A DNA stretch of 59,887 bases, taken from contig JAZLHA010000005.1 of the NCBI GenBank assembly GCA_045616625.1, positions 1 to 59,887 on the forward strand, given 5' to 3'. This DNA is from Candidatus Enterousia sp. (lineage in GTDB: Bacteria > Pseudomonadota > Alphaproteobacteria > Rs-D84). Below, one piece after another: positions 1 through 59,887 of the stretch. Position 1 is the first letter of the stretch. Each line of letters starts with the position of its first letter. Position numbers and translations under genes: made by a program. Below the pieces are notes generated by a model. The model was not told where the DNA came from, searched no databases, and was given only the letters and a program-made list of their open reading frames with translations.

Positions 1-138
1 ACGAAGTGAAGCAATCCAGTTATAATAAAGTATAAATACATATTTACTAGATTGGCTGCGGGCGTTATACTCCTGTGCGATGACAAAAGTTGTTGGACAC
101 AGGTTATAAGTCCCTGTTATGGCCTACGCCGGAATGAC
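1..138. repeat. Rickettsia-palindromic-element (RPE/REP)-like repeat, truncated at window start
   Basis: ACGAAGTGAAGCAATCCAGT at 1-20 is identical to 59685-59704. It is followed by degenerate right arms ending ...GCGATGAC and ...GGAATGAC, typical of alphaproteobacterial GTCATTGCG/CGCAATGAC palindromic elements. Confidence 0.6.
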
Positions 139-34450: not shown

Positions 34451-36427
34451 TTAATTACTTCCTGTGCTAGACTTTGGATAAATTTTATCAATCCAATCTG
34501 TTAGTCCTTCGGCATCACCTATTTCATTAACAGATTTACATGTGGTAATTAACTTACGACATGCGTTTATAGCAACTTGACGTCCTGTATCTGTATTATT
34601 ACCCGCAGGTAAATTTGTTGCCATACATGATTGAACGTCTGTGATACAATCTTCGGCGTAATCAGCCAATATAGTATCCTGGGACGCTTTAATTTGTGGC
34701 ATAATACGGTTCAGGTATTCAGTTATAACCATATTGTTTGGCAGATACTGTGCCGTCTGACTACCTGTTGCCTTTTTATAAGTATAATTCTGGCACTGAT
34801 TCAATACAGATATGCACATGCCATAGTTTCTGTTGTCAGTATTGTTGTGATAACCAATCTTGTATTGCAAGAATTCTGACATACTATCTGATGTTTTGTT
34901 TATCGGATTGTTTGGGCCAGTTGGCATAGTGTTGTTTATGTATTCCGCCAAAGTATCTTCTGGTGTATTACCCCAAGCATAATGGTCATCAAAATTCCAA
35001 GTCGCATATAAACCACTCTCTTTTGAATTTTCTTTTTCCATCGGCTCGGAACCGATAACAATTTCGCCGTTTACGATATATTTACCTGTTGGGTCTAAAC
35101 ATCCTTCGTAATCAGAACCGCAAACGAAATCAGAACGCATACAAGAATCCAAAGCCTCCACGCATCCGCGCAAATCATACTGGTTCTTGTTTTGTGCAAC
35201 CATCAAACGTGCCTTTTGTAATACAGATTTTGCATTACGTACTGTTGATTCCATTTGAGTGTTTGCGTCTTTCAAATTACGTTCGTAAGCCATACATGCT
35301 TTGTCTATCTGCAGGTCGTATGCGTTTGTAATAATAGATGGGTCAACACCCTGGGCACTGCAAGAATTTAATACCGACGCTTTACAACGTGCAGCGGCTG
35401 TTTTATAAAGATTTGCACCACGTTGATTAGAAATACTGGACGTATTGGCTGTATTTGTTGTTGCCATAAATGAAGACAAATCAAAACCGGTATTGTCAAA
35501 CGAGAAATCTAACAATCCAGACAAATCCATATTCAAAGAACCCGTAGATGTCGAAGAAGAGGCTGTGCCAGACTTTACGTCTACAATCATGCGTTTAATT
35601 TTATCCAAATCAGTTTTTAATTGTGTTGAATCAGATGACGTTGATAATTTTGCTTCTGCTTCTGTTTCTGTGAATAGAGTATCTATATCTTCGGCATTTA
35701 GACCAATATATTGAATTTGTTGTGCAACATCCTGTAAAGACTCAGTTGCTTCATTTAAGGCTTCTTCTGTTTTTGCATAGTTGGCAATATTTGCAGAACA
35801 AGAACAACGACCTTCATTATCATCTAATACATTGCAGTAATTATCCATACATGCCGCATATTGTGCTTTGCAATAATCGGTCATTTCGGCCAACTGATCC
35901 AATTCATTTGCAGAATTTGTTTGTGTTGTGGGTGTCGAAATACCAATATTGTTACTACTACGAAATGACATGGCAGAACTACGTGTGCTTACACGTGCGT
36001 TTGGATTATATAGAGTGCTACCAGAACCACGAAGGGTCGCTGCACGTGCTGTTACAGCACGTTGAGTATTTGTGTTACGAGAGGTGACCACACTATTACG
36101 TGGGGAAATATTAGAACGACCTGAAACAGAGTTTGTACGTGTGGCTGTTCCGCGTGTGCTCGCTTGTGTGGCGCCCCCCCTGGTTGTGCGTCCACGCGCA
36201 GTTGCTGTTGTTCGTGCAGATTTATTCTGGACTGTGTTTGTAGGTTTTGCATTTGGTGTTGACGCGGTTTGTTCAGCAACAGGTTCAACCGCCTGTTCTG
36301 TTTCCTCTGGAACAACAACAAATTCATCATCAAACTCAATAGAATTGTCGGGCAAGTATTGTGGCAAAACCTCTGCAAATGCGGGCAAAACCAACAGACT
36401 GCCAATAACAACGAACAACCTTTTCAT
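34451..36427 (-). CDS. secreted Cys-rich protein with Ser/Thr/Arg-rich N-terminal region
   Basis: Signal peptide, low-complexity RST tract, repeated C-x6-C helical motifs; GGAG RBS before MKRLF. Confidence 0.8.
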   Translation of the reverse strand: MKRLFVVIGSLLVLPAFAEVLPQYLPDNSIEFDDEFVVVPEETEQAVEPVAEQTASTPNAKPTNTVQNKSARTTATARGRTTRGGATQASTRGTATRTNSVSGRSNISPRNSVVTSRNTNTQRAVTARAATLRGSGSTLYNPNARVSTRSSAMSFRSSNNIGISTPTTQTNSANELDQLAEMTDYCKAQYAACMDNYCNVLDDNEGRCSCSANIANYAKTEEALNEATESLQDVAQQIQYIGLNAEDIDTLFTETEAEAKLSTSSDSTQLKTDLDKIKRMIVDVKSGTASSSTSTGSLNMDLSGLLDFSFDNTGFDLSSFMATTNTANTSSISNQRGANLYKTAAARCKASVLNSCSAQGVDPSIITNAYDLQIDKACMAYERNLKDANTQMESTVRNAKSVLQKARLMVAQNKNQYDLRGCVEALDSCMRSDFVCGSDYEGCLDPTGKYIVNGEIVIGSEPMEKENSKESGLYATWNFDDHYAWGNTPEDTLAEYINNTMPTGPNNPINKTSDSMSEFLQYKIGYHNNTDNRNYGMCISVLNQCQNYTYKKATGSQTAQYLPNNMVITEYLNRIMPQIKASQDTILADYAEDCITDVQSCMATNLPAGNNTDTGRQVAINACRKLITTCKSVNEIGDAEGLTDWIDKIYPKSSTGSN

Positions 36428-36496
36428 GTGTATCTCCACTCTCTTGTTATGTTAATTTTATCACATTTTGAGTGTAAAAACAAACGAAAAATTTGT

Positions 36497-37221: not shown

Positions 37222-38646
37222 TTAGAACAATTTAAACTTGTAATTTGTTCCAATACGGAAAGACGCTTTTGTGCCTTTGCCGAATCCAAAACCAACACCA
37301 GCATTAGCGGACCAGTTATCGGTAATACCCATAGCTGCACCCAATGCCATTGCTGATTTAGAGTTGTAGTTGCCGTAACCACCACCGACAGACATTTCGC
37401 CTTTCTTTACATTGGAAACTTCAACAGCGGATAAAGCAACAGAACTTGCGATACCAGCAGATAGGTTTTCATCTAAGTCGTTAACCTTAGAATCCAACGC
37501 AGCAATATCGTTACGGGTTGCATCAATTGCAGAACGTAATTTAGCATCTTCGGCTGCGCGTGTTTCTGCTTCACCTGCAATTTGCAAATCAGTATAAGAA
37601 TTTGCAGATACCAAAGTCATAGCGTCACCTGTATCAATAGCTGTTTTGATTGCACCACCTTCGCCTAAAGCAAGTTCTATTCTGCTATCTGCTTCGTTAT
37701 CAATAGTGTCTAAGATTGGCGCATTATATACATCTAGTGCAATATTTGATGATTCAAAGTCTCTATAGTCATTTTCAAAGGATTGTTTTGCATCAACTAA
37801 TGATTGCCATTTATCGTTCAGGTTGCCCAATGTGTTTTGATCTGTCGTATATACATTAAAGGCAGCTGATGCTATGTCTAGTTCTTCTGCAACTAAATCT
37901 CCTGTATGGTCTTTTGCGTTTTCTACCAAGGATACAGCATCGTTATAATAACCTTTTGCTTCTTCAAATAAAGAAACTAAATCGCCAGTAGGTGTAATTT
38001 GTTCATTTGTTCCTTTCTTGACTAAAATGATTTCACCATCTTGATCTTTCAATGAGTATTCTTGTCCGCTATTTGTTATAACAAACATATCCGGAATGAA
38101 CTCTTCTGCATCACCGTTTGTAGCAACAATAGAAGATTTTGTTACAGAAATAGCCTCATCATGTTCGTCTGGCAATAAATCTACTGTTTCTGTAAATTGA
38201 TTATTTGCAACAACACCTGTTCCTGCTTCATTTAATTTTAACTCAAATGTTTTTGCATCTTCACCTTCTCCAAGTATATATTGATAGTTTGATGCCTCCA
38301 TTTTCATACCAGCAATTAATTCAGTATTTTTTACACTAATACCATTTTCGTCTGGTTCAACTGTAGCAGAGCTTTCGCCTTTATAATCAGATTGAACTAT
38401 ATTATCTGTCCCTTCTGAATCCAAAGCGACTTCGTCACCATTTGGATTTGTATAATTGTAAGCAACATCAGATTTGGTTGGTTCTGCTATAGGAGAATTT
38501 ACATCACCTGTTTTTCCCGTTTCTTCTGTATCAGTTGCTCTTGAAAACTTACCAGCAAAAGTTACGTCTGTTGTTGCAGCACCTGCAGTGCCCATCATCA
38601 AGATAGATGCCATTGCACCACAGAAAACAATATTTTTTACTTTCAT
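37222..38646 (-). CDS. trimeric autotransporter adhesin (YadA-like anchor)
   Basis: Signal peptide, acidic passenger, coiled-coil stalk, C-terminal AGIASSVAL..SVGGGYGNY..ALGA..four beta strands ending in F. Confidence 0.9.
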   Translation of the reverse strand: MKVKNIVFCGAMASILMMGTAGAATTDVTFAGKFSRATDTEETGKTGDVNSPIAEPTKSDVAYNYTNPNGDEVALDSEGTDNIVQSDYKGESSATVEPDENGISVKNTELIAGMKMEASNYQYILGEGEDAKTFELKLNEAGTGVVANNQFTETVDLLPDEHDEAISVTKSSIVATNGDAEEFIPDMFVITNSGQEYSLKDQDGEIILVKKGTNEQITPTGDLVSLFEEAKGYYNDAVSLVENAKDHTGDLVAEELDIASAAFNVYTTDQNTLGNLNDKWQSLVDAKQSFENDYRDFESSNIALDVYNAPILDTIDNEADSRIELALGEGGAIKTAIDTGDAMTLVSANSYTDLQIAGEAETRAAEDAKLRSAIDATRNDIAALDSKVNDLDENLSAGIASSVALSAVEVSNVKKGEMSVGGGYGNYNSKSAMALGAAMGITDNWSANAGVGFGFGKGTKASFRIGTNYKFKLF

Positions 38647-38721
38647 TTTTTTCCCTTTTATTTTTGGTTAACCAAAGAAGGTTATGAAATTTCACATCCC
38701 TCTTGTTGAAACGAATGATAC

Positions 38722-38737
38722 AAAAACCTAGGTTTTT
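38722..38737. repeat. palindromic site A (AAAAACCTAGGTTTTT), candidate recombinase crossover site
   Basis: Seen directly; centre TA at 38729-38730. Confidence 0.65.
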
Positions 38738-38856
38738 TTTGTGCTCCCCTGCGGGCATTTTGAAAAAATTACAAAAAATCGTCGTAGTTCTTAGAAATCT
38801 GGGTAAAATAACAGGTTTTATAAAAAACAAAAAAAGTAAAAATATTGGTTGACATT

Positions 38857-38868
38857 AAACCTAGGTTT
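38857..38868. repeat. palindromic site B (AAACCTAGGTTT), candidate recombinase crossover site
   Basis: Seen directly; centre TA at 38862-38863; TTGACA at 38849-38854 just inside. Confidence 0.65.
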
Positions 38869-39022: not shown

Positions 39023-39628
39023 ATGATTTATGGGTATTGTCGTGTATCAACAACACATCAACATGAAGAAAATCAGCACTTTGTTATAGAACAATTTGCG
39101 CATAAAAATGATATAAAAATAGATGTTTGGATAGAAGAAAAAATTTCAAGTAGTCGTAAATTATCAGAACGTAAATTGGGAGGATTATTAAAAAAATTGA
39201 AATCTGGTGATATTTTAATTACAACCGAAATATCGCGTTTAGGTCGCAGTTTATTAGAGGTTATGTCAATTTTGCAAACGTGTATGGAAAAGGGGTGTCA
39301 GGTCTGGACTTTAAAGGAAAATTTTAGATTGGGGTCTGATATTCAATCAAAAGTATTGGCTTTCGCATTTGGGCTAACTGCAGAATTATCCAAAGGTTTG
39401 CTCCAGGCACGCGTGCGTGAAAGTTTAGCACGTTTAAAAGCGGCTGGAATAAAACTCGGACGGCCACATGGTGCAAAATCAAAAAAATTAAAATTGGATA
39501 AAAACCGCGAAAAAATAAAAGTTATGCTTTCTTGTGGAATTAGCAGAAATCAAATTTGCAAAATAATGGATATAGATAAAAGAACTTTAAACTCTTTTAT
39601 TGAACGTGAAATAATAAAACGCAGATAA
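39023..39628 (+). CDS. serine recombinase, Mpi (master DNA invertase)-like
   Basis: MIYGYCRVST catalytic Ser, EISRLGRSL, RLGSDIQSKVLAFAFGL (Mpi-type segment), LGRP and C-terminal HTH. Confidence 0.9.
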   Translation: MIYGYCRVSTTHQHEENQHFVIEQFAHKNDIKIDVWIEEKISSSRKLSERKLGGLLKKLKSGDILITTEISRLGRSLLEVMSILQTCMEKGCQVWTLKENFRLGSDIQSKVLAFAFGLTAELSKGLLQARVRESLARLKAAGIKLGRPHGAKSKKLKLDKNREKIKVMLSCGISRNQICKIMDIDKRTLNSFIEREIIKRR

Positions 39629-39690: not shown

Positions 39691-39975
39691 ATGGCAACAG
39701 TGACAAGAAATGATTTTGCAAACCGTTTGCGTGAACGTTTTGGTTTGACTATGGCTGATGCATATAAATTAGTCGACCTTGTGTTTGCCGAAATTGGTGA
39801 GGCTTTAATCCGTGATGAAGAGGTTAAGTTCGCAGGACTTGGTACTTTTAAAATATTAACAAAATCTGCGCGTATTGGACGCAACCCAAAAACTGGCGCG
39901 CCTGCGGTAATTTCTGCACGTCGTGTGGCAACATTTCGCCCATCGGCTGAATTTCGTGCGCGCGTTGCTAAATGA
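39691..39975 (+). CDS. ihfA: IHF/HU family DNA-bending protein (IHF-alpha-like)
   Basis: GLGTF..RIGRNPKTG..ISARRVATFRPS. Confidence 0.85.
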   Translation: MATVTRNDFANRLRERFGLTMADAYKLVDLVFAEIGEALIRDEEVKFAGLGTFKILTKSARIGRNPKTGAPAVISARRVATFRPSAEFRARVAK

Positions 39976-55482: not shown

Positions 55483-57675
55483 ATGTTTAGCGCAGGAACC
55501 ATTGTCAAAGTTTTAATACCAAATGTAGTAAATAGTGGTTATGATTACCGCCTGAATAGTGATGCGCGCCTTGGTCAATTTGTTGCGGTCACCGTCATGA
55601 ATCGCAAATATATTGGCGTGATTGTTGGTGTGGGTGATAGTGGCCTGGATGAAAACAAAATCAAAAATGTTATAGAGGTTTATGCGTGCGGTTTATCGCC
55701 TGATGATTTAAGTTGGATTTATCGTATGGCTGAATGGACACTAATGGCACCGGGTGCGGTATTGCGTTTGATTGTTAATGTCCCTGATGCTTTTTTGCCA
55801 CCGCGCGCAGAACAATTATTCAACTTTAATTTTGATGCACATGTTCGCATGACTGATAATCGTCAGATGGTTGCAGATGCATTTTCATCCAATGATAACG
55901 ATGTGATGTCAGTGCCCGACATAAAAAATATCGCGCATGTTTCGTCAAGCGTTATAAATACAATGATAAAAAACGGAACTTTGGTTCCTGTTTGCTTGCG
56001 TGAAAAAAATGCTGATGAATTTGTTTATAAATATTTTGATACGGGTAATGTTAAATTAAATACCGAACAACAAAATGCCGCGAACGAAATTGCAAATGCA
56101 TTGAAATCTGGTGGTTTTTCGGCGTATTTGTTGGACGGCATAACGGGTTCCGGCAAGACCCAGGTTTATTTTGATTCTGTGTTGCGTGCATATAACAATG
56201 GTAAATCAGTTTTGTTGATGATGCCTGAAATTGCATTGACTGCGCAATTTATGAATAGGTTTAAATCGCGCTTTGGTGCGAATCCTGTTGTGTGGCACAG
56301 TAATTTAACCGCGGCTCGCCGGCGTGAAATTTGGCGTGGTGTTGCAAATGGAAAAATTCGTATTGTTGTCGGAACGCGCAGTGCGTTGTTTTTGCCATGG
56401 CAAAATTTAGGTTTAATCGTTGTGGACGAAGAACACGATACTTCATATAAACAGGAAGATATGGGAAATTATCATGCGCGCGATATGGCGGTTCTGCGTG
56501 CCAAGATTTCTAAATTCCCGATAGTATTGGCATCCGCAACCCCATCCGAAGAAACCCTGCAAAATGTTGCGCTTGGTAAATACAAACAGTTGAAATTGAC
56601 ATCGCGTTTTGGTGGTGCACAATTACCAACAATTTCAACAATTGATTTGCGTGAGAACCGACCAACCGAATATACGGTGAATTCGGAAAGTGTCGCCGGC
56701 AATTTATCAGAACCGTTGTGTGATGCAATTGGTGAAACTATTTCAGCCGGACAACAGGTTATGCTGTTTATAAATCGTCGTGGTTTTGCCCCAATTGTTC
56801 AGTGTAAAAAATGTGGCTTTGTTGCACAGTGTCCTGATTGTTCTGTGGGTATGACTTATCATAAAAGACTTGGTAAATTATTATGTCACATGTGTGGTCG
56901 CACAATGGAAATGCCAAAAAAGTGTCCTGAATGTGGTAATGAATTTTCTATGCGTGGGGCGGGACTTGAAAAAATACAGCAAGAGGTTAACGCGCGTTTC
57001 CCAACTGCACGAACTGCATTGGTGTCCAGTGATACGATTATGACGCGTCAAACATTGGAACGCATTGTTGATAAAATGGAAAACGGTGAAATAGATATTG
57101 TTATCGGAACACAGATATTGGCCAAGGGACATCATTTTCCAAATTTGACTTTGGTTGGTGTGGTGGATGCAGATATGGGATTGTTTGGAACAGACTTTCG
57201 CGCCGCAGAACACACTTTCCAGCAATTGTTTCAGGTCGCGGGCAGGGCTGGTCGTGGCGAAATACCGGGGCGCGTTTTAATGCAAACTTATCAGCCTGAT
57301 AATGATGTGTTAAATGCGATTTGTGCCGGCAATAGGGATAGTTTTATAAATGCAGATATGGCATCACGTCGGGCCGCCAAAATGCCACCATTTGGAAATT
57401 TGATTGCGGTTATTATAGAGGTGCAAAAAGAAGATGTATTAAAAAAATATGCATCTGCGCTGGCGAATTCTGCGCCGAAATTAAACGGTGCAAAAATTAT
57501 GGGGCCGATTGCTGCACAAATATATCAGGTTCGGAATTGGTATCGTATGCGATTTTTGGTCGCTGGTGATGTAAAGTCTGATTTACAAAGTGTTGTTAAA
57601 ACATGGTTGTCATGTGTAAAACAACCCGTAAATATCAGGGTCAAAATTGATGTCGGCCCAGTGAATTTTATGTAA
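55483..57675 (+). CDS. priA: primosomal protein N'
   Basis: GITGSGKT, DEEH, two CxxC pairs, GTQILAKGHHFP, QVAGRAGR. Confidence 0.97.
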   Translation: MFSAGTIVKVLIPNVVNSGYDYRLNSDARLGQFVAVTVMNRKYIGVIVGVGDSGLDENKIKNVIEVYACGLSPDDLSWIYRMAEWTLMAPGAVLRLIVNVPDAFLPPRAEQLFNFNFDAHVRMTDNRQMVADAFSSNDNDVMSVPDIKNIAHVSSSVINTMIKNGTLVPVCLREKNADEFVYKYFDTGNVKLNTEQQNAANEIANALKSGGFSAYLLDGITGSGKTQVYFDSVLRAYNNGKSVLLMMPEIALTAQFMNRFKSRFGANPVVWHSNLTAARRREIWRGVANGKIRIVVGTRSALFLPWQNLGLIVVDEEHDTSYKQEDMGNYHARDMAVLRAKISKFPIVLASATPSEETLQNVALGKYKQLKLTSRFGGAQLPTISTIDLRENRPTEYTVNSESVAGNLSEPLCDAIGETISAGQQVMLFINRRGFAPIVQCKKCGFVAQCPDCSVGMTYHKRLGKLLCHMCGRTMEMPKKCPECGNEFSMRGAGLEKIQQEVNARFPTARTALVSSDTIMTRQTLERIVDKMENGEIDIVIGTQILAKGHHFPNLTLVGVVDADMGLFGTDFRAAEHTFQQLFQVAGRAGRGEIPGRVLMQTYQPDNDVLNAICAGNRDSFINADMASRRAAKMPPFGNLIAVIIEVQKEDVLKKYASALANSAPKLNGAKIMGPIAAQIYQVRNWYRMRFLVAGDVKSDLQSVVKTWLSCVKQPVNIRVKIDVGPVNFM

Positions 57676-58635
57676 TTACACTACTTCGGTGACGGCACGC
57701 AGGGAACCATCGCGGGCGAGTTGCACAACGCGAATTTTCTTTTTCATTTCTTGTATTAAATCTGTGCGGTCGTATGCAGGTTGCGTGTGTAAAATGCGGT
57801 CAGCAAATGCGGCGTATGCGGCTTCGGCACTTTCGGCATGAATTGTTGTATAGAAATGGTCGTGACCTGTCCCCAGCATTTCCCACAAAACCGCGGCATT
57901 ATCAGTTGAAATTTCACCACCGATTATTACATCGGGTGTCATACGCACAACCAAATCCAACAGGCGTGCATAGTTAAATTCGTTGCTTTGTTCTGTGCGG
58001 GACAAAACAAAGTGAACACGATTCGCTTGTGGAACGTGGATTTCGCGCGCATCTTCAACGGTAATAACGCGACTATTTTGGTCAATCTGTTTTAACATGT
58101 GGTTCAGGAAAGTCGTTTTTCCGGTTGCAGTTGCACCGCTTATTAAAATAGGACTGCCATCATTTATTGCGGACATCAACCTTTCGTATGGGTCGTCTGG
58201 GCGTTCTTTTTTACGCTTTTTGACTTTTAATAAATCTTTACCTTTGACCAGGTGATAGTTTTCGAAACTAGTTTCTGGTGCGTTTCCACCACGAATATTC
58301 ATTGCGACACCACCTGTCACATCATTGTCATCGTATTGAACATTTGGCCCCGCAATTGCAGAAAAACGATGACTGCCGGGCAGGGTGGCATAAACCACCG
58401 GCACACCATGTGTTGGATTAAATGGCAATTCATAAATGTTTGCAATTGTATGAATCAGGTCAACTAAGTATTGTTTAGTTAAGTGTGGTGCAGGATATGA
58501 AACCCAAGGCACGCGTGCACCATGCAGTCGCATCCATACCTCGCCTGCGTGATTTATAGCAATTTCTTCTACAAACTCGGGCTTGTAAAATTCTTCCAAT
58601 GGTTTTAATAAAGAATCAAGAACTACATTTGACAT
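57676..58635 (-). CDS. virB11: VirB11/CpaF-family secretion ATPase
   Basis: Walker A SGATATGKTT, Asp box TVEDARE, RMTPDVIIGGE, His box GH..TTIHAES. Confidence 0.88.
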   Translation of the reverse strand: MSNVVLDSLLKPLEEFYKPEFVEEIAINHAGEVWMRLHGARVPWVSYPAPHLTKQYLVDLIHTIANIYELPFNPTHGVPVVYATLPGSHRFSAIAGPNVQYDDNDVTGGVAMNIRGGNAPETSFENYHLVKGKDLLKVKKRKKERPDDPYERLMSAINDGSPILISGATATGKTTFLNHMLKQIDQNSRVITVEDAREIHVPQANRVHFVLSRTEQSNEFNYARLLDLVVRMTPDVIIGGEISTDNAAVLWEMLGTGHDHFYTTIHAESAEAAYAAFADRILHTQPAYDRTDLIQEMKKKIRVVQLARDGSLRAVTEVV

Positions 58636-58719
58636 CAATATCATTTTATCACAAATCCCTGCTTGAATCAAAATAGTTTATTTGGTAAAATTAAAATAAA
58701 TTTGAAAAGAGAGATAATC

Positions 58720-59271
58720 ATGACTAAAAAAATTTTTGTTGCATTGGCATCTATGTTTTTACTTGCTGCGTGTGGAGTGGCTTATAATGAATCTGATTTT
58801 GCAAATGGTGGTGATGATGCGCCATTGTATAATGAACGTACGGCTCAATTCATAAATGCTAACAATGAATACGCTGATATCGATTCGCATAAACCAATCA
58901 GGGGTGCGGATATGGAAGCACAAAACGAGAAATGGAATACATCGCGTATGGAAACCCATTGGCAGGAATACAAGGGAACAATGGTTCGTGTTCAGATTTT
59001 ATTGGGTGATACCGATGTTCGTGAAATGCGCTTGCGCTTGATGCAGAATGCCGACGGAATGGATGTTGATGGTGATGCACGCACCATTTTGGACAAGGTT
59101 GCAGATTACGAAATGAAACGTGTTTGCGGTCGAAATGCTGATAACATTGCAGTGATTTACGACAATCCATCTTTTGATGTTATGCGTCCAACACCGTATT
59201 TTGATTACAGAATAGAATCAGCCGGTTCAACAATGCGTGAATACGGATTCCGTTGCGTTTATAATAAATAA
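58720..59271 (+). CDS. hypothetical lipoprotein
   Basis: Lipobox LAAC after MTKKIF signal peptide. Confidence 0.75.
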   Translation: MTKKIFVALASMFLLAACGVAYNESDFANGGDDAPLYNERTAQFINANNEYADIDSHKPIRGADMEAQNEKWNTSRMETHWQEYKGTMVRVQILLGDTDVREMRLRLMQNADGMDVDGDARTILDKVADYEMKRVCGRNADNIAVIYDNPSFDVMRPTPYFDYRIESAGSTMREYGFRCVYNK

Positions 59272-59285
59272 GAAAGGAGAAATAA

Positions 59286-59615
59286 ATGAAAAAAATAGCA
59301 ATCATTTTAGGTGTCTGTGGAACATTTATGTTGGGTGCATGTGGCAACAATGATGTTGCGAAACTTGGCGATACTGTAATAATTGATTTTGCAGGTTTTG
59401 ATGAAAATGGTGTTCAGTTTGATGGTGGTACCGCAACCGGATATCCATTAAAATTGGGTAGTGGTCAATTTGTTCCAGGGTTTGAAGAACAATTGGTTGG
59501 TGCAAAAATCGGTGAAAGTCGTGATGTAAATATAACATTCCCAAAACAATATGTTCCTGCATTGGCGGGCAAGGATGTCGTGTTTAAGGTGACCGTGACC
59601 GATATTGTGAAATAA
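59286..59615 (+). CDS. FKBP-type PPIase lipoprotein (trigger-factor-like FKBP domain)
   Basis: Lipobox LGAC; GDTVIIDFAG..FDGG..LGSGQFVPGFEEQL..FP..Y..LAGK. Confidence 0.88.
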   Translation: MKKIAIILGVCGTFMLGACGNNDVAKLGDTVIIDFAGFDENGVQFDGGTATGYPLKLGSGQFVPGFEEQLVGAKIGESRDVNITFPKQYVPALAGKDVVFKVTVTDIVK

Positions 59616-59674
59616 AGAATAATATAAAACAACACCCATTTGGGTGTTTTTTTATGTCGCACTTACTCACCTTT

Positions 59675-59716
59675 GTCATTGCGAACGAAGTGAAGCAATC
59701 CAGTCATAATAATGAC
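59675..59716. repeat. RPE/REP-like repeat, left arm
   Basis: GTCATTGCGAACGAAGTGAAGCAATCCAGT...AATGAC; shares 20 nt with the window start. Confidence 0.6.
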
Positions 59717-59782
59717 AAAGAAGAGTAATTCAGGTATTTATTGCTTTAAATATAGTAAAATCAAATAATTATAATACCTAAC

Positions 59783-59887
59783 TGGTACATAAAAAACCTA
59801 GGTTTATGTCCATGATAAAAATTGACTTTTTTCACATTTTTCAAAATTCGTAATTTTATGCAGATTTGTGCGTCTTTGCACAATTTT
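59783..59887. repeat. second copy of the CCTAGG cassette (site C), truncated by window end
   Basis: TGGTACATAAAAAACCTAGGTTTATGTC matches the reverse complement of 38851-38879 (TGGTGCATAAAAAACCTAGGTTTAATGTC), with patchy similarity continuing to the end. Confidence 0.7.

Follow-up and report, generated by a model that had tools for sequence, protein, structure and literature searches.

A family of probable split-promoter flip-switches and one Mpi-like invertase in a Candidatus Enterousia genome, with one copy cut by a contig end

The window analyzed here, a stretch of 59,887 nt, is the entire contig C5 of a Candidatus Enterousia genome (G000; 814 kb in 14 contigs, 96% complete by marker genes, ca. 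38% G+C); the sister genomes with which it was compared are G007, G058, G119, and G224, and L numbers denote numbered loci. Near its right end lies a housekeeping gene for an FKBP-type peptidyl-prolyl isomerase (59286–59615, plus strand; PF00254, 2e-16), the 3′ end of which adjoins a short cassette that runs off the contig. Between the two stands a bidirectional terminator-like hairpin (59631–59648), followed by a flank that was duplicated along with the cassette (59656–59793) and includes a 28-nt dispersed repeat (59685–59712). The outer half-site on this gene-less side, GGTACATAAA (59784–59793), is common to the copies on contigs C7, C9, and C14, and the putative recombination core, AAACCTAGGTTT (59794–59805), is a perfect 12-bp palindrome that recurs at 38724 and 38857. 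To the right of the core follows ATGTCCATGA, and the first 82 of the 119 nt of the putatively invertible interior, its promoter end (59806–59887, minus strand), extend to the contig end.

A preliminary description of this DNA had proposed that the window end carries a second copy of a switch cassette, and its observations held up on reanalysis. The segment 59784–59812 aligned with the reverse complement of the site there termed B and its flanks, with one A/G substitution and one 1-nt core-adjacent gap. The −35-like hexamer TGGACA reported just inside the palindrome was found on the minus strand at 59807–59812, one base inside the site, and the similarity to the interior of the first cassette continued, at 74% over 86 columns when 59783–59867 was compared with the reverse complement. 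No recombinase gene was adjacent; the open reading frames in 56000–59887 encode a PriA-like protein (a label taken solely from a reading of the frame), a VirB11-like protein, an unknown lipoprotein, and the FKBP protein. The −35-like hexamer points left, at the terminator hairpin, as in an OFF-type junction, and the promoter scan of the window end found no promoter-like site across the palindrome in the assembled state. By this arrangement, the copy is in the OFF-type orientation, in which the hairpin would halt leftward transcripts.

The first cassette (cassette 1) occupies 38724–38868, with its two sites at 38724–38735 and 38857–38868, the starts of which are 133 bp apart. To its left is its candidate target, a minus-strand gene (37222–38646) whose 474-aa product has a signal peptide as well as a YadA-like membrane anchor of the trimeric autotransporter adhesin type (PF03895, 4.1e-10). 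A −35 hexamer TTGACA lies on the plus strand at 38849–38854, and a −10 hexamer TATCAT lies on the minus strand at 38715–38720, outside the other site, so that the cassette as assembled is of the OFF type for the left gene; inverted, it would have a spacer of 17 nt. Two genes from the adhesin gene, a minus-strand frame (34451–36439) encodes a 662-aa secreted, cysteine-rich protein that is rich in Ser, Thr, and Asn, with no Pfam family and no cassette upstream. Beside cassette 1 on the other side is a plus-strand gene (39023–39628) for a 201-aa small serine recombinase, with Ser9 in the motif YGYCRVST and a PF00239 domain over residues 2–142 (2.4e-28). A gene for an HU-family DNA-bending protein (39691–39975) begins 63 nt after the recombinase gene. 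HU was considered as a conserved invertase cofactor for a loop of ca. 120 bp and was rejected, as an HU gene within 1.5 kb of the invertase was found in 0 of 19 relatives.

The recombinase product matched the NCBIfam model NF009949, "master DNA invertase Mpi family", with 256.1 bits (E 2.1e-76), residues 1–198 aligning with model positions 1–198 of 203. The equivalog cut-off of that model is 272 bits, which the product, a close homologue, missed by 16 bits; the G007 orthologue scored 260.7 bits. The comparison with Mpi made in the preliminary description was thereby borne out as homology rather than mere likeness, because the enzyme matched the Mpi-family model over its full length. A weak HTH_7 match at residues 155–188 marks a C-terminal helix-turn-helix, so that the protein combines a resolvase domain bearing the serine with a C-terminal helix-turn-helix, as small serine recombinases do. 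Its closest solved relative was the Gin invertase (4m6f; E 5.8e-11), aligned over residues 1–189, with Ser9 opposite the Gin nucleophile. Of 100 genomes sampled within the genus, 79 carried an invertase homologue, and the enzyme shared 50–53% identity with homologues from records that bear the titles Bacteroidaceae, Capnocytophaga, and Pedobacter.

Two genes with a PF00239 domain were found in G000, namely the 201-aa gene beside cassette 1 and a gene for a 545-aa large serine recombinase on contig C13. The latter, a 545-aa frame with a resolvase domain (L011, C13 27353–27805), probably belongs to an integrated element unrelated to the cassettes. Three tyrosine recombinase genes are also present, none of them near a cassette, and these are possible alternative catalysts. 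The enzyme encoded at 39023–39628 is presumed, from its family and position, to flip all of the cassettes in trans.

The core palindrome forms a family in G000. Exact copies of AAACCTAGGTTT numbered 10 in the 814-kb genome, against 0 of a reversed control, and only two sites with one mismatch were found elsewhere in it. Statistics from the window alone were modest (three matches against 0.23 expected, a count of three being reached in 1 of 100 shuffles). The genome scan that the preliminary description had called for, for palindrome pairs spaced about 130 bp apart, returned three complete pairs with 130–133 bp between site starts: cassette 1, a pair on contig C1 (17714/17844; 130 bp), and a pair on contig C7 (266/397; 131 bp). 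At these three loci, a short segment stands between inverted repeats, as in an inverton, and the window end shows one repeat. The four unpaired sites all lie 83–277 bp from contig ends. Three belong to cassettes cut by a contig end or start, at C5 59794 and C14 88066 (94 and 130 bases from the end, respectively) and at C9 83 (83 bp from the start), and the fourth is a single-site copy that appears locked, at C13 87475 (277 bases from the end). The proposed multi-locus regulon with an invertase acting in trans was therefore supported by seven loci and by the sole small serine recombinase gene, which lies beside cassette 1, and G000 probably has at least seven near-identical flip-switches with one Mpi-like invertase toggling surface-protein genes. 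At C1 17863–17874 (L002), a third site with two mismatches, CAACCTAGGTTC, was seen 7 nt past the site at the right of the C1 cassette; this copy may have decayed, or it may offer an alternative place for recombination.

The window stops within this repeat family. The segment 59627–59887 was the reverse complement of C9 1–261 save for one base, 59746, and the contig ends exactly 141 nt after this base, the last one that distinguishes C5 from the paralogous copy. Likewise, the start of C7 and the end of C13 have 277 nt in common, with the first difference at position 142, and contig overlaps measured exactly 141 nt for C4/C10 and C12/C13, and 100 nt for C1/C10. Since the sequence stops one k-mer after the last unique base, the break at 59887 was a repeat collapse (k = 141) in a repeat longer than k. 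The preliminary description had suggested that the break could reflect mixed orientations or repeats; the 141-nt signature supports the repeats, and mixed orientation, though it may exist as well, is not needed to explain it. Past the shared 261 nt, the FKBP gene follows in C5 and a MurG-like gene in C9, and with such divergent flanks the two contigs represent two loci rather than one. The 28-nt dispersed repeat was found at 59685–59712, at window positions 1–28, and at C2 1–28, C4 822–849, and C9 176–203. It sits inside a longer inverted-repeat element, depth piles up on it in the runs searched, and C2 and C5, both of which begin with it, are 97% alike over their first 155–156 nt. The element looks REP- or MITE-like and looks like another assembly breaker.

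What lies past the window end can be predicted from its paralogues. The interior at 59806–59887 was 100% identical to C7 396–315 (reverse complement) and to C14 88078–88159, and identity extended over 59779–59887 with C14 88051–88159 and with the C7 cassette. The C7 copy is a whole element, and the C14 copy has the interior up to one base short of the partner site. A partner site had been expected near 59932; because the identical C7 and C14 copies have a 119-nt interior, the partner of the site at 59794 is now predicted at 59925–59936. In an independent run, one contig (X4 record 27) extends beyond 59887: it covers what remains of the interior, then a second site, and then a flank that starts TTGATACACT and bears the −10, an arrangement of the C7 type. 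Among the 14 contigs of the bin, no far flank was found for the copies on C5, C9, and C14, and the contigs other than those already named bore no site. Synteny after the FKBP gene was not conserved in G007, G119, G224, and G058; in G224, a cassette lies 2.3 kb downstream of the FKBP gene in a different arrangement.

These last observations would also suit a relic at the window end, meaning a single site or decayed cassette with neither partner nor regulated gene, left on the gene-less side: nothing is assembled past 59887, no bin contig offers a matching far flank, and single-site loci do exist (C13 in G000, L033 in G007, and several in G224 and G058). We consider a relic unlikely, as a decayed copy would have diverged, whereas these 82 nt match both the complete C7 copy and the C14 copy without a single difference. 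A contig end one k-mer (141 nt) past the last unique base moreover marks a repeat and not the end of homology, and many apparent single sites in the relatives have a one-mismatch partner. The window-end copy is instead likely to have an intact partner and a target gene. Beyond the window end would follow the −10-bearing flank and then, probably, a paralogous surface-protein gene that was left unassembled.

The cassettes are built to one plan. In G000, they are ca. 143 bp long, with an A+T-rich interior of 119–121 nt between two copies of AAACCTAGGTTT, the full sites being palindromes of ca. 30 bp. In every complete cassette of the genomes compared, a −35-like hexamer stands 1–2 nt inside one site (TTGACA, TTGAAA, or TGGACA in G000; TTGCAA or TTGACT in G007; mostly TTGCTT in G224 and G058). 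A −10-like hexamer stands 3–5 nt outside the opposite site, often with TG before it (TATCAT or TACACT; TATAAT or TATATT in G224 and G058), and past it come a ribosome-binding site and a gene for a secreted or outer-membrane protein that starts with a signal peptide. The prediction that a −10 would be found outside the far site, followed by a surface-protein gene, was borne out at every complete paralogue in G000 and, over four genomes, in 30 of 31 complete cassettes. These 31 cassettes, from G000 (3), G007 (11), G224 (13), and G058 (4), were classified by rule as 4 ON, 26 OFF, and 1 unclassifiable, the last having the gene-less flank type on both sides. For each of the 30 cassettes that could be classified, the would-be ON spacer measured 17 or 18 nt, a descriptive rather than a blind result, as the −35 and −10 rules were drawn up after the sequences had been viewed.

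Two single-site loci, C13 87446–87486 in G000 and L033 in G007, keep exactly the −35 end beside the gene, and look like locked-ON copies judging by this layout. At the C13 site, the promoter scan returned TGGACA-17-TACACT with an upstream TG, in a scan of low specificity that gave 7 hits against 2.6 expected. The ON copy in G007, with TTGCAA and TACACT, scores 8/12 by hand count and lies below the threshold of the promoter scan. Upstream of the −35, the interiors of the G007 cassettes L024–L036 each carry a hairpin rich in G+C, CCCCAGAAATCTGGGG, accompanied by runs of T on either strand; this hairpin, which is terminator-like in both directions, would insulate the switch from read-through.

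Inversion itself was indicated by comparison among loci, and most of the orientation evidence is between paralogues. In G007, near-identical paralogous loci carried the interior in opposite orientations with unchanged flanks. When 91 cassettes from genomes and metagenome contigs were compared, 23 pairs had both flanks alike, and one orthologous pair among them was inverted, L179 (a metagenome contig) and L170 (G058). Their flanks matched at 0.82 and 0.85, their interiors at 0.10 in the forward direction and 0.73 when inverted, and the sites were intact. As read from these alignments, this is an inversion at one orthologous locus between two populations.

Four animal gut or faeces runs were searched as Logan contigs, in which rare variants are dropped. 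Among the matches listed for these runs, no inverted junction at 59794–59805 was seen; the junction as assembled occurred in X1 record 7 and X3 record 18. The locked C13 locus occurred in X1 and X3 as loose ends, and a C7-type cassette in X4 record 27. An exact 30-nt flank-plus-site probe gave 0 hits against the metagenome contigs. The paired-site pattern gave 81 stretches, 23 of which were Enterousia-like by a reading of the cassette ends, and the remainder were mostly unrelated low-G+C repeats that happened to contain the 12-mer; none of the paired-site stretches was close to the G000 cassettes. On metagenome contigs of 18–27% G+C (for example, at L187, L204, L213, and L243), the 12-mer lies inside a longer dispersed repeat (..GTGTAGG-site-CCTCAC..) that is unrelated to the switch and cautions against counting the 12-mer alone.

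The same material could be read as the spread of an element without present flipping, either a small, non-autonomous, MITE-like mobile element whose terminal inverted repeats are 12 bp long or a promoter module that was duplicated and is static, inserted in one orientation or the other. The cassettes are indeed short, A+T-rich, and multi-copy, with terminal inverted repeats, and four of them match one another at 100%; between the copies on C5 and C9, another 167 nt of flank, including the 28-nt repeat and the hairpin, is shared, much as if a larger module were spreading, and the contigs of the four runs gave no sign of heterogeneity within a population. We nevertheless regard such an element as very unlikely. 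No transposase was seen in association with the copies, the neighbor being an Mpi-family invertase whose clade co-occurs with the site, and the repeats were present with no direct duplication flanking the copies, as a MITE or insertion sequence would have. The palindrome extends into both flanks, with inner and outer half-sites alike, as for a recombinase dimer site and unlike transposon ends. The orthologous locus differs solely by an exact inversion between the sites, and the −35 and −10 keep a spacing of 17–18 nt in the 30 classifiable cassettes of the 31. In relatives, moreover, the only difference between the two sites is their central dinucleotide, which is AA in one site and TT in its partner.

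Such a difference at the center is a hallmark of invertase crossover sites. In a set of 80 related loci from named records, a pair of ACCWWGGT motifs 107–111 bp apart and no more than 240 bp upstream accompanied 9 of the 11 invertases that were at least 68% identical, and 0 of the 69 more distant ones. In six of the nine relatives bearing the pair, an AA/TT contrast at the central dinucleotide was the sole difference between the sites, and a symmetric TA center was present in the other three and in G000. This variation, together with the chemistry of serine invertases, places the presumed crossover at the central TA.

Taken together, these data make it very probable that the family works by an Mpi-family invertase flipping split-promoter cassettes that control surface-protein genes. 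The invertase, encoded 20 kb upstream of the window end beside cassette 1, would act on all cassettes in trans and invert the segment that each pair of sites encloses, the central TA being the presumed point of crossover. In the ON state, the −35 would be brought 17–18 nt from the −10, and the recombination site itself would be the promoter spacer; in the OFF state at the window end, the −35 would face the terminator of the housekeeping gene.

The target genes fit control of the cell surface. A YadA anchor was found not only in the adhesin beside cassette 1 but also in the target of the invertase-adjacent cassette of G007 (L026). Two further G007 targets (L027 and L031) carry a Listeria-Bacteroides repeat, and the others form a paralogous family of proteins of ca. 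310–350 aa with a signal peptide, the scanned members of which had no Pfam match. The C7 and C13 targets of G000 start MS(A/V)KPFLTSGLILGLVVSPAI, and both contigs stop 205 nt into the gene. Paralogues of this target on C1 and C2 have no cassette. Ahead of the paralogue on C1 is a leader of ca. 330 nt (C1 8790–9120) that has no recombination site, and directly before this leader the hairpin-plus-repeat element of 59627–59714 recurs.

Across the genus, the 12-mer was present in 23 of 257 genomes searched, G000 counted, with 67 copies in G119, 30 in G224, 24 in G007, 13 in G058, and 10 in G000. Sites in these four sister genomes were mostly paired, 106–119 bp apart, and many lay at contig ends. 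Five genomes with AA/TT cores had only the pair beside the invertase, other matches being at the level of the control pattern. Among genomes with TA cores and few sites, G089, G210, G226, and G189 had one pair each, and G020 had one exact site. Given these single local switches in the AA/TT-core genomes and in some TA-core genomes, the local switch is probably ancestral and the regulon a lineage-specific expansion.

A symmetric TA core would leave the sites without intrinsic polarity, which raises the question of exchange between cassettes. Two loci, L171 (G058 C5 41844–41964) and L181 (a metagenome contig), have the gene-less flank type on both sides, and these flanks fit the product of recombination between two different cassettes, as inter-locus exchange would give. 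It is highly improbable, all the same, that the dispersed sites serve mainly for large, shufflon-like rearrangements between cassettes, with the contig breaks reflecting these rather than local flips. Of the 31 complete cassettes, 30 combine a gene flank with a gene-less one, the reciprocal product, a cassette between two gene flanks, was not found, and k-mer-length repeats account for the contig ends. Local flipping remains the preferred reading. A broader scenario, conceivable but rather doubtful, would add exchange to it: the core went from AA/TT to TA and lost its polarity, and a single ancestral local switch of invertase, promoter, and adhesin gene grew to as many as ca. 30 split-promoter switches in a 0.9-Mb genome, the same enzyme also recombining cassettes, re-pairing promoters and flanks, and rearranging the chromosome. 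If so, ca. 30 switches in 0.9 Mb would be among the densest known, in a regulon growing and reshuffling through its own recombinase.

The system described here is homologous to the Mpi regulon of Bacteroides and probably its functional analogue; the host lineage is new, and the split-promoter design is distinctive. Like Mpi (Ssr2) of Bacteroides fragilis, it pairs a small serine recombinase, presumably acting globally, with many dispersed, short, putatively invertible promoters that would drive surface structures. The host, in contrast, is an alphaproteobacterium with a genome below 1 Mb, and the targets are individual genes for adhesin-like and repeat proteins rather than the polysaccharide operons under Mpi. 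Unlike Mpi, the invertase gene here has its own adjacent cassette, and the segment is shorter, with 106–133 bp between site starts. The Mpi promoters of Bacteroides lie wholly inside the invertible region, whereas the promoter here appears to be split between the interior, which holds the −35, and the flank, which holds the −10. Among the papers listed by the literature search with inversion terms, none used the phrase "split promoter", a weak hint that the design may be undescribed.

Hin, Gin, and Cin of Salmonella and of phages Mu and P1 belong to the same superfamily and, as here, have the invertase gene beside its own switch; imperfect palindromes of ca. 26–30 bp are also common to both, as are AA/TT central dinucleotides in the relatives of G000. 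Each of those enzymes serves one switch with a segment of ca. 1–3 kb and depends on Fis and an enhancer. By comparison, the present system has many targets, a segment of ca. 120 bp, and a symmetric TA center in G000.

A further parallel is the mpl (P35) system of Mycoplasma penetrans, a reduced genome in which most of 38 surface-protein genes, at several loci, are described as independently switched by adjacent invertible promoters, and tyrosine recombinases as the candidate enzymes (PMC2268961). The reduced genome and, probably, the single invertible promoter for each surface-protein gene are features in common; the serine invertase of the Mpi family and the Gram-negative host set the present system apart. 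The cassette size and 12-bp repeats in M. penetrans, in work by Horino from 2003, are reportedly close to those seen here.

Enterousia, of the order Rs-D84, is described as uncultured, with genomes below 1 Mb and little biosynthesis, probably dependent on partner cells, and living in the guts of farm animals; in that paper, the words invert*, recombinase, adhesin, and phase variation are absent (PMC12306168). Within the literature searched, no paper had both "Enterousia" and "invert*".

If the cassettes form an Mpi-type regulon, Mpi-family master invertases are not confined to Bacteroidota, and organisms with reduced genomes spend a notable share of their intergenic DNA on surface variation. 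If true, the compact design, in which the recombination site doubles as the spacer, should keep the OFF state tight and could be of use as a synthetic switch. As the cassettes break short-read assemblies and variable surface genes are lost from bins, gene inventories of Enterousia-type genomes would under-count this class of genes.
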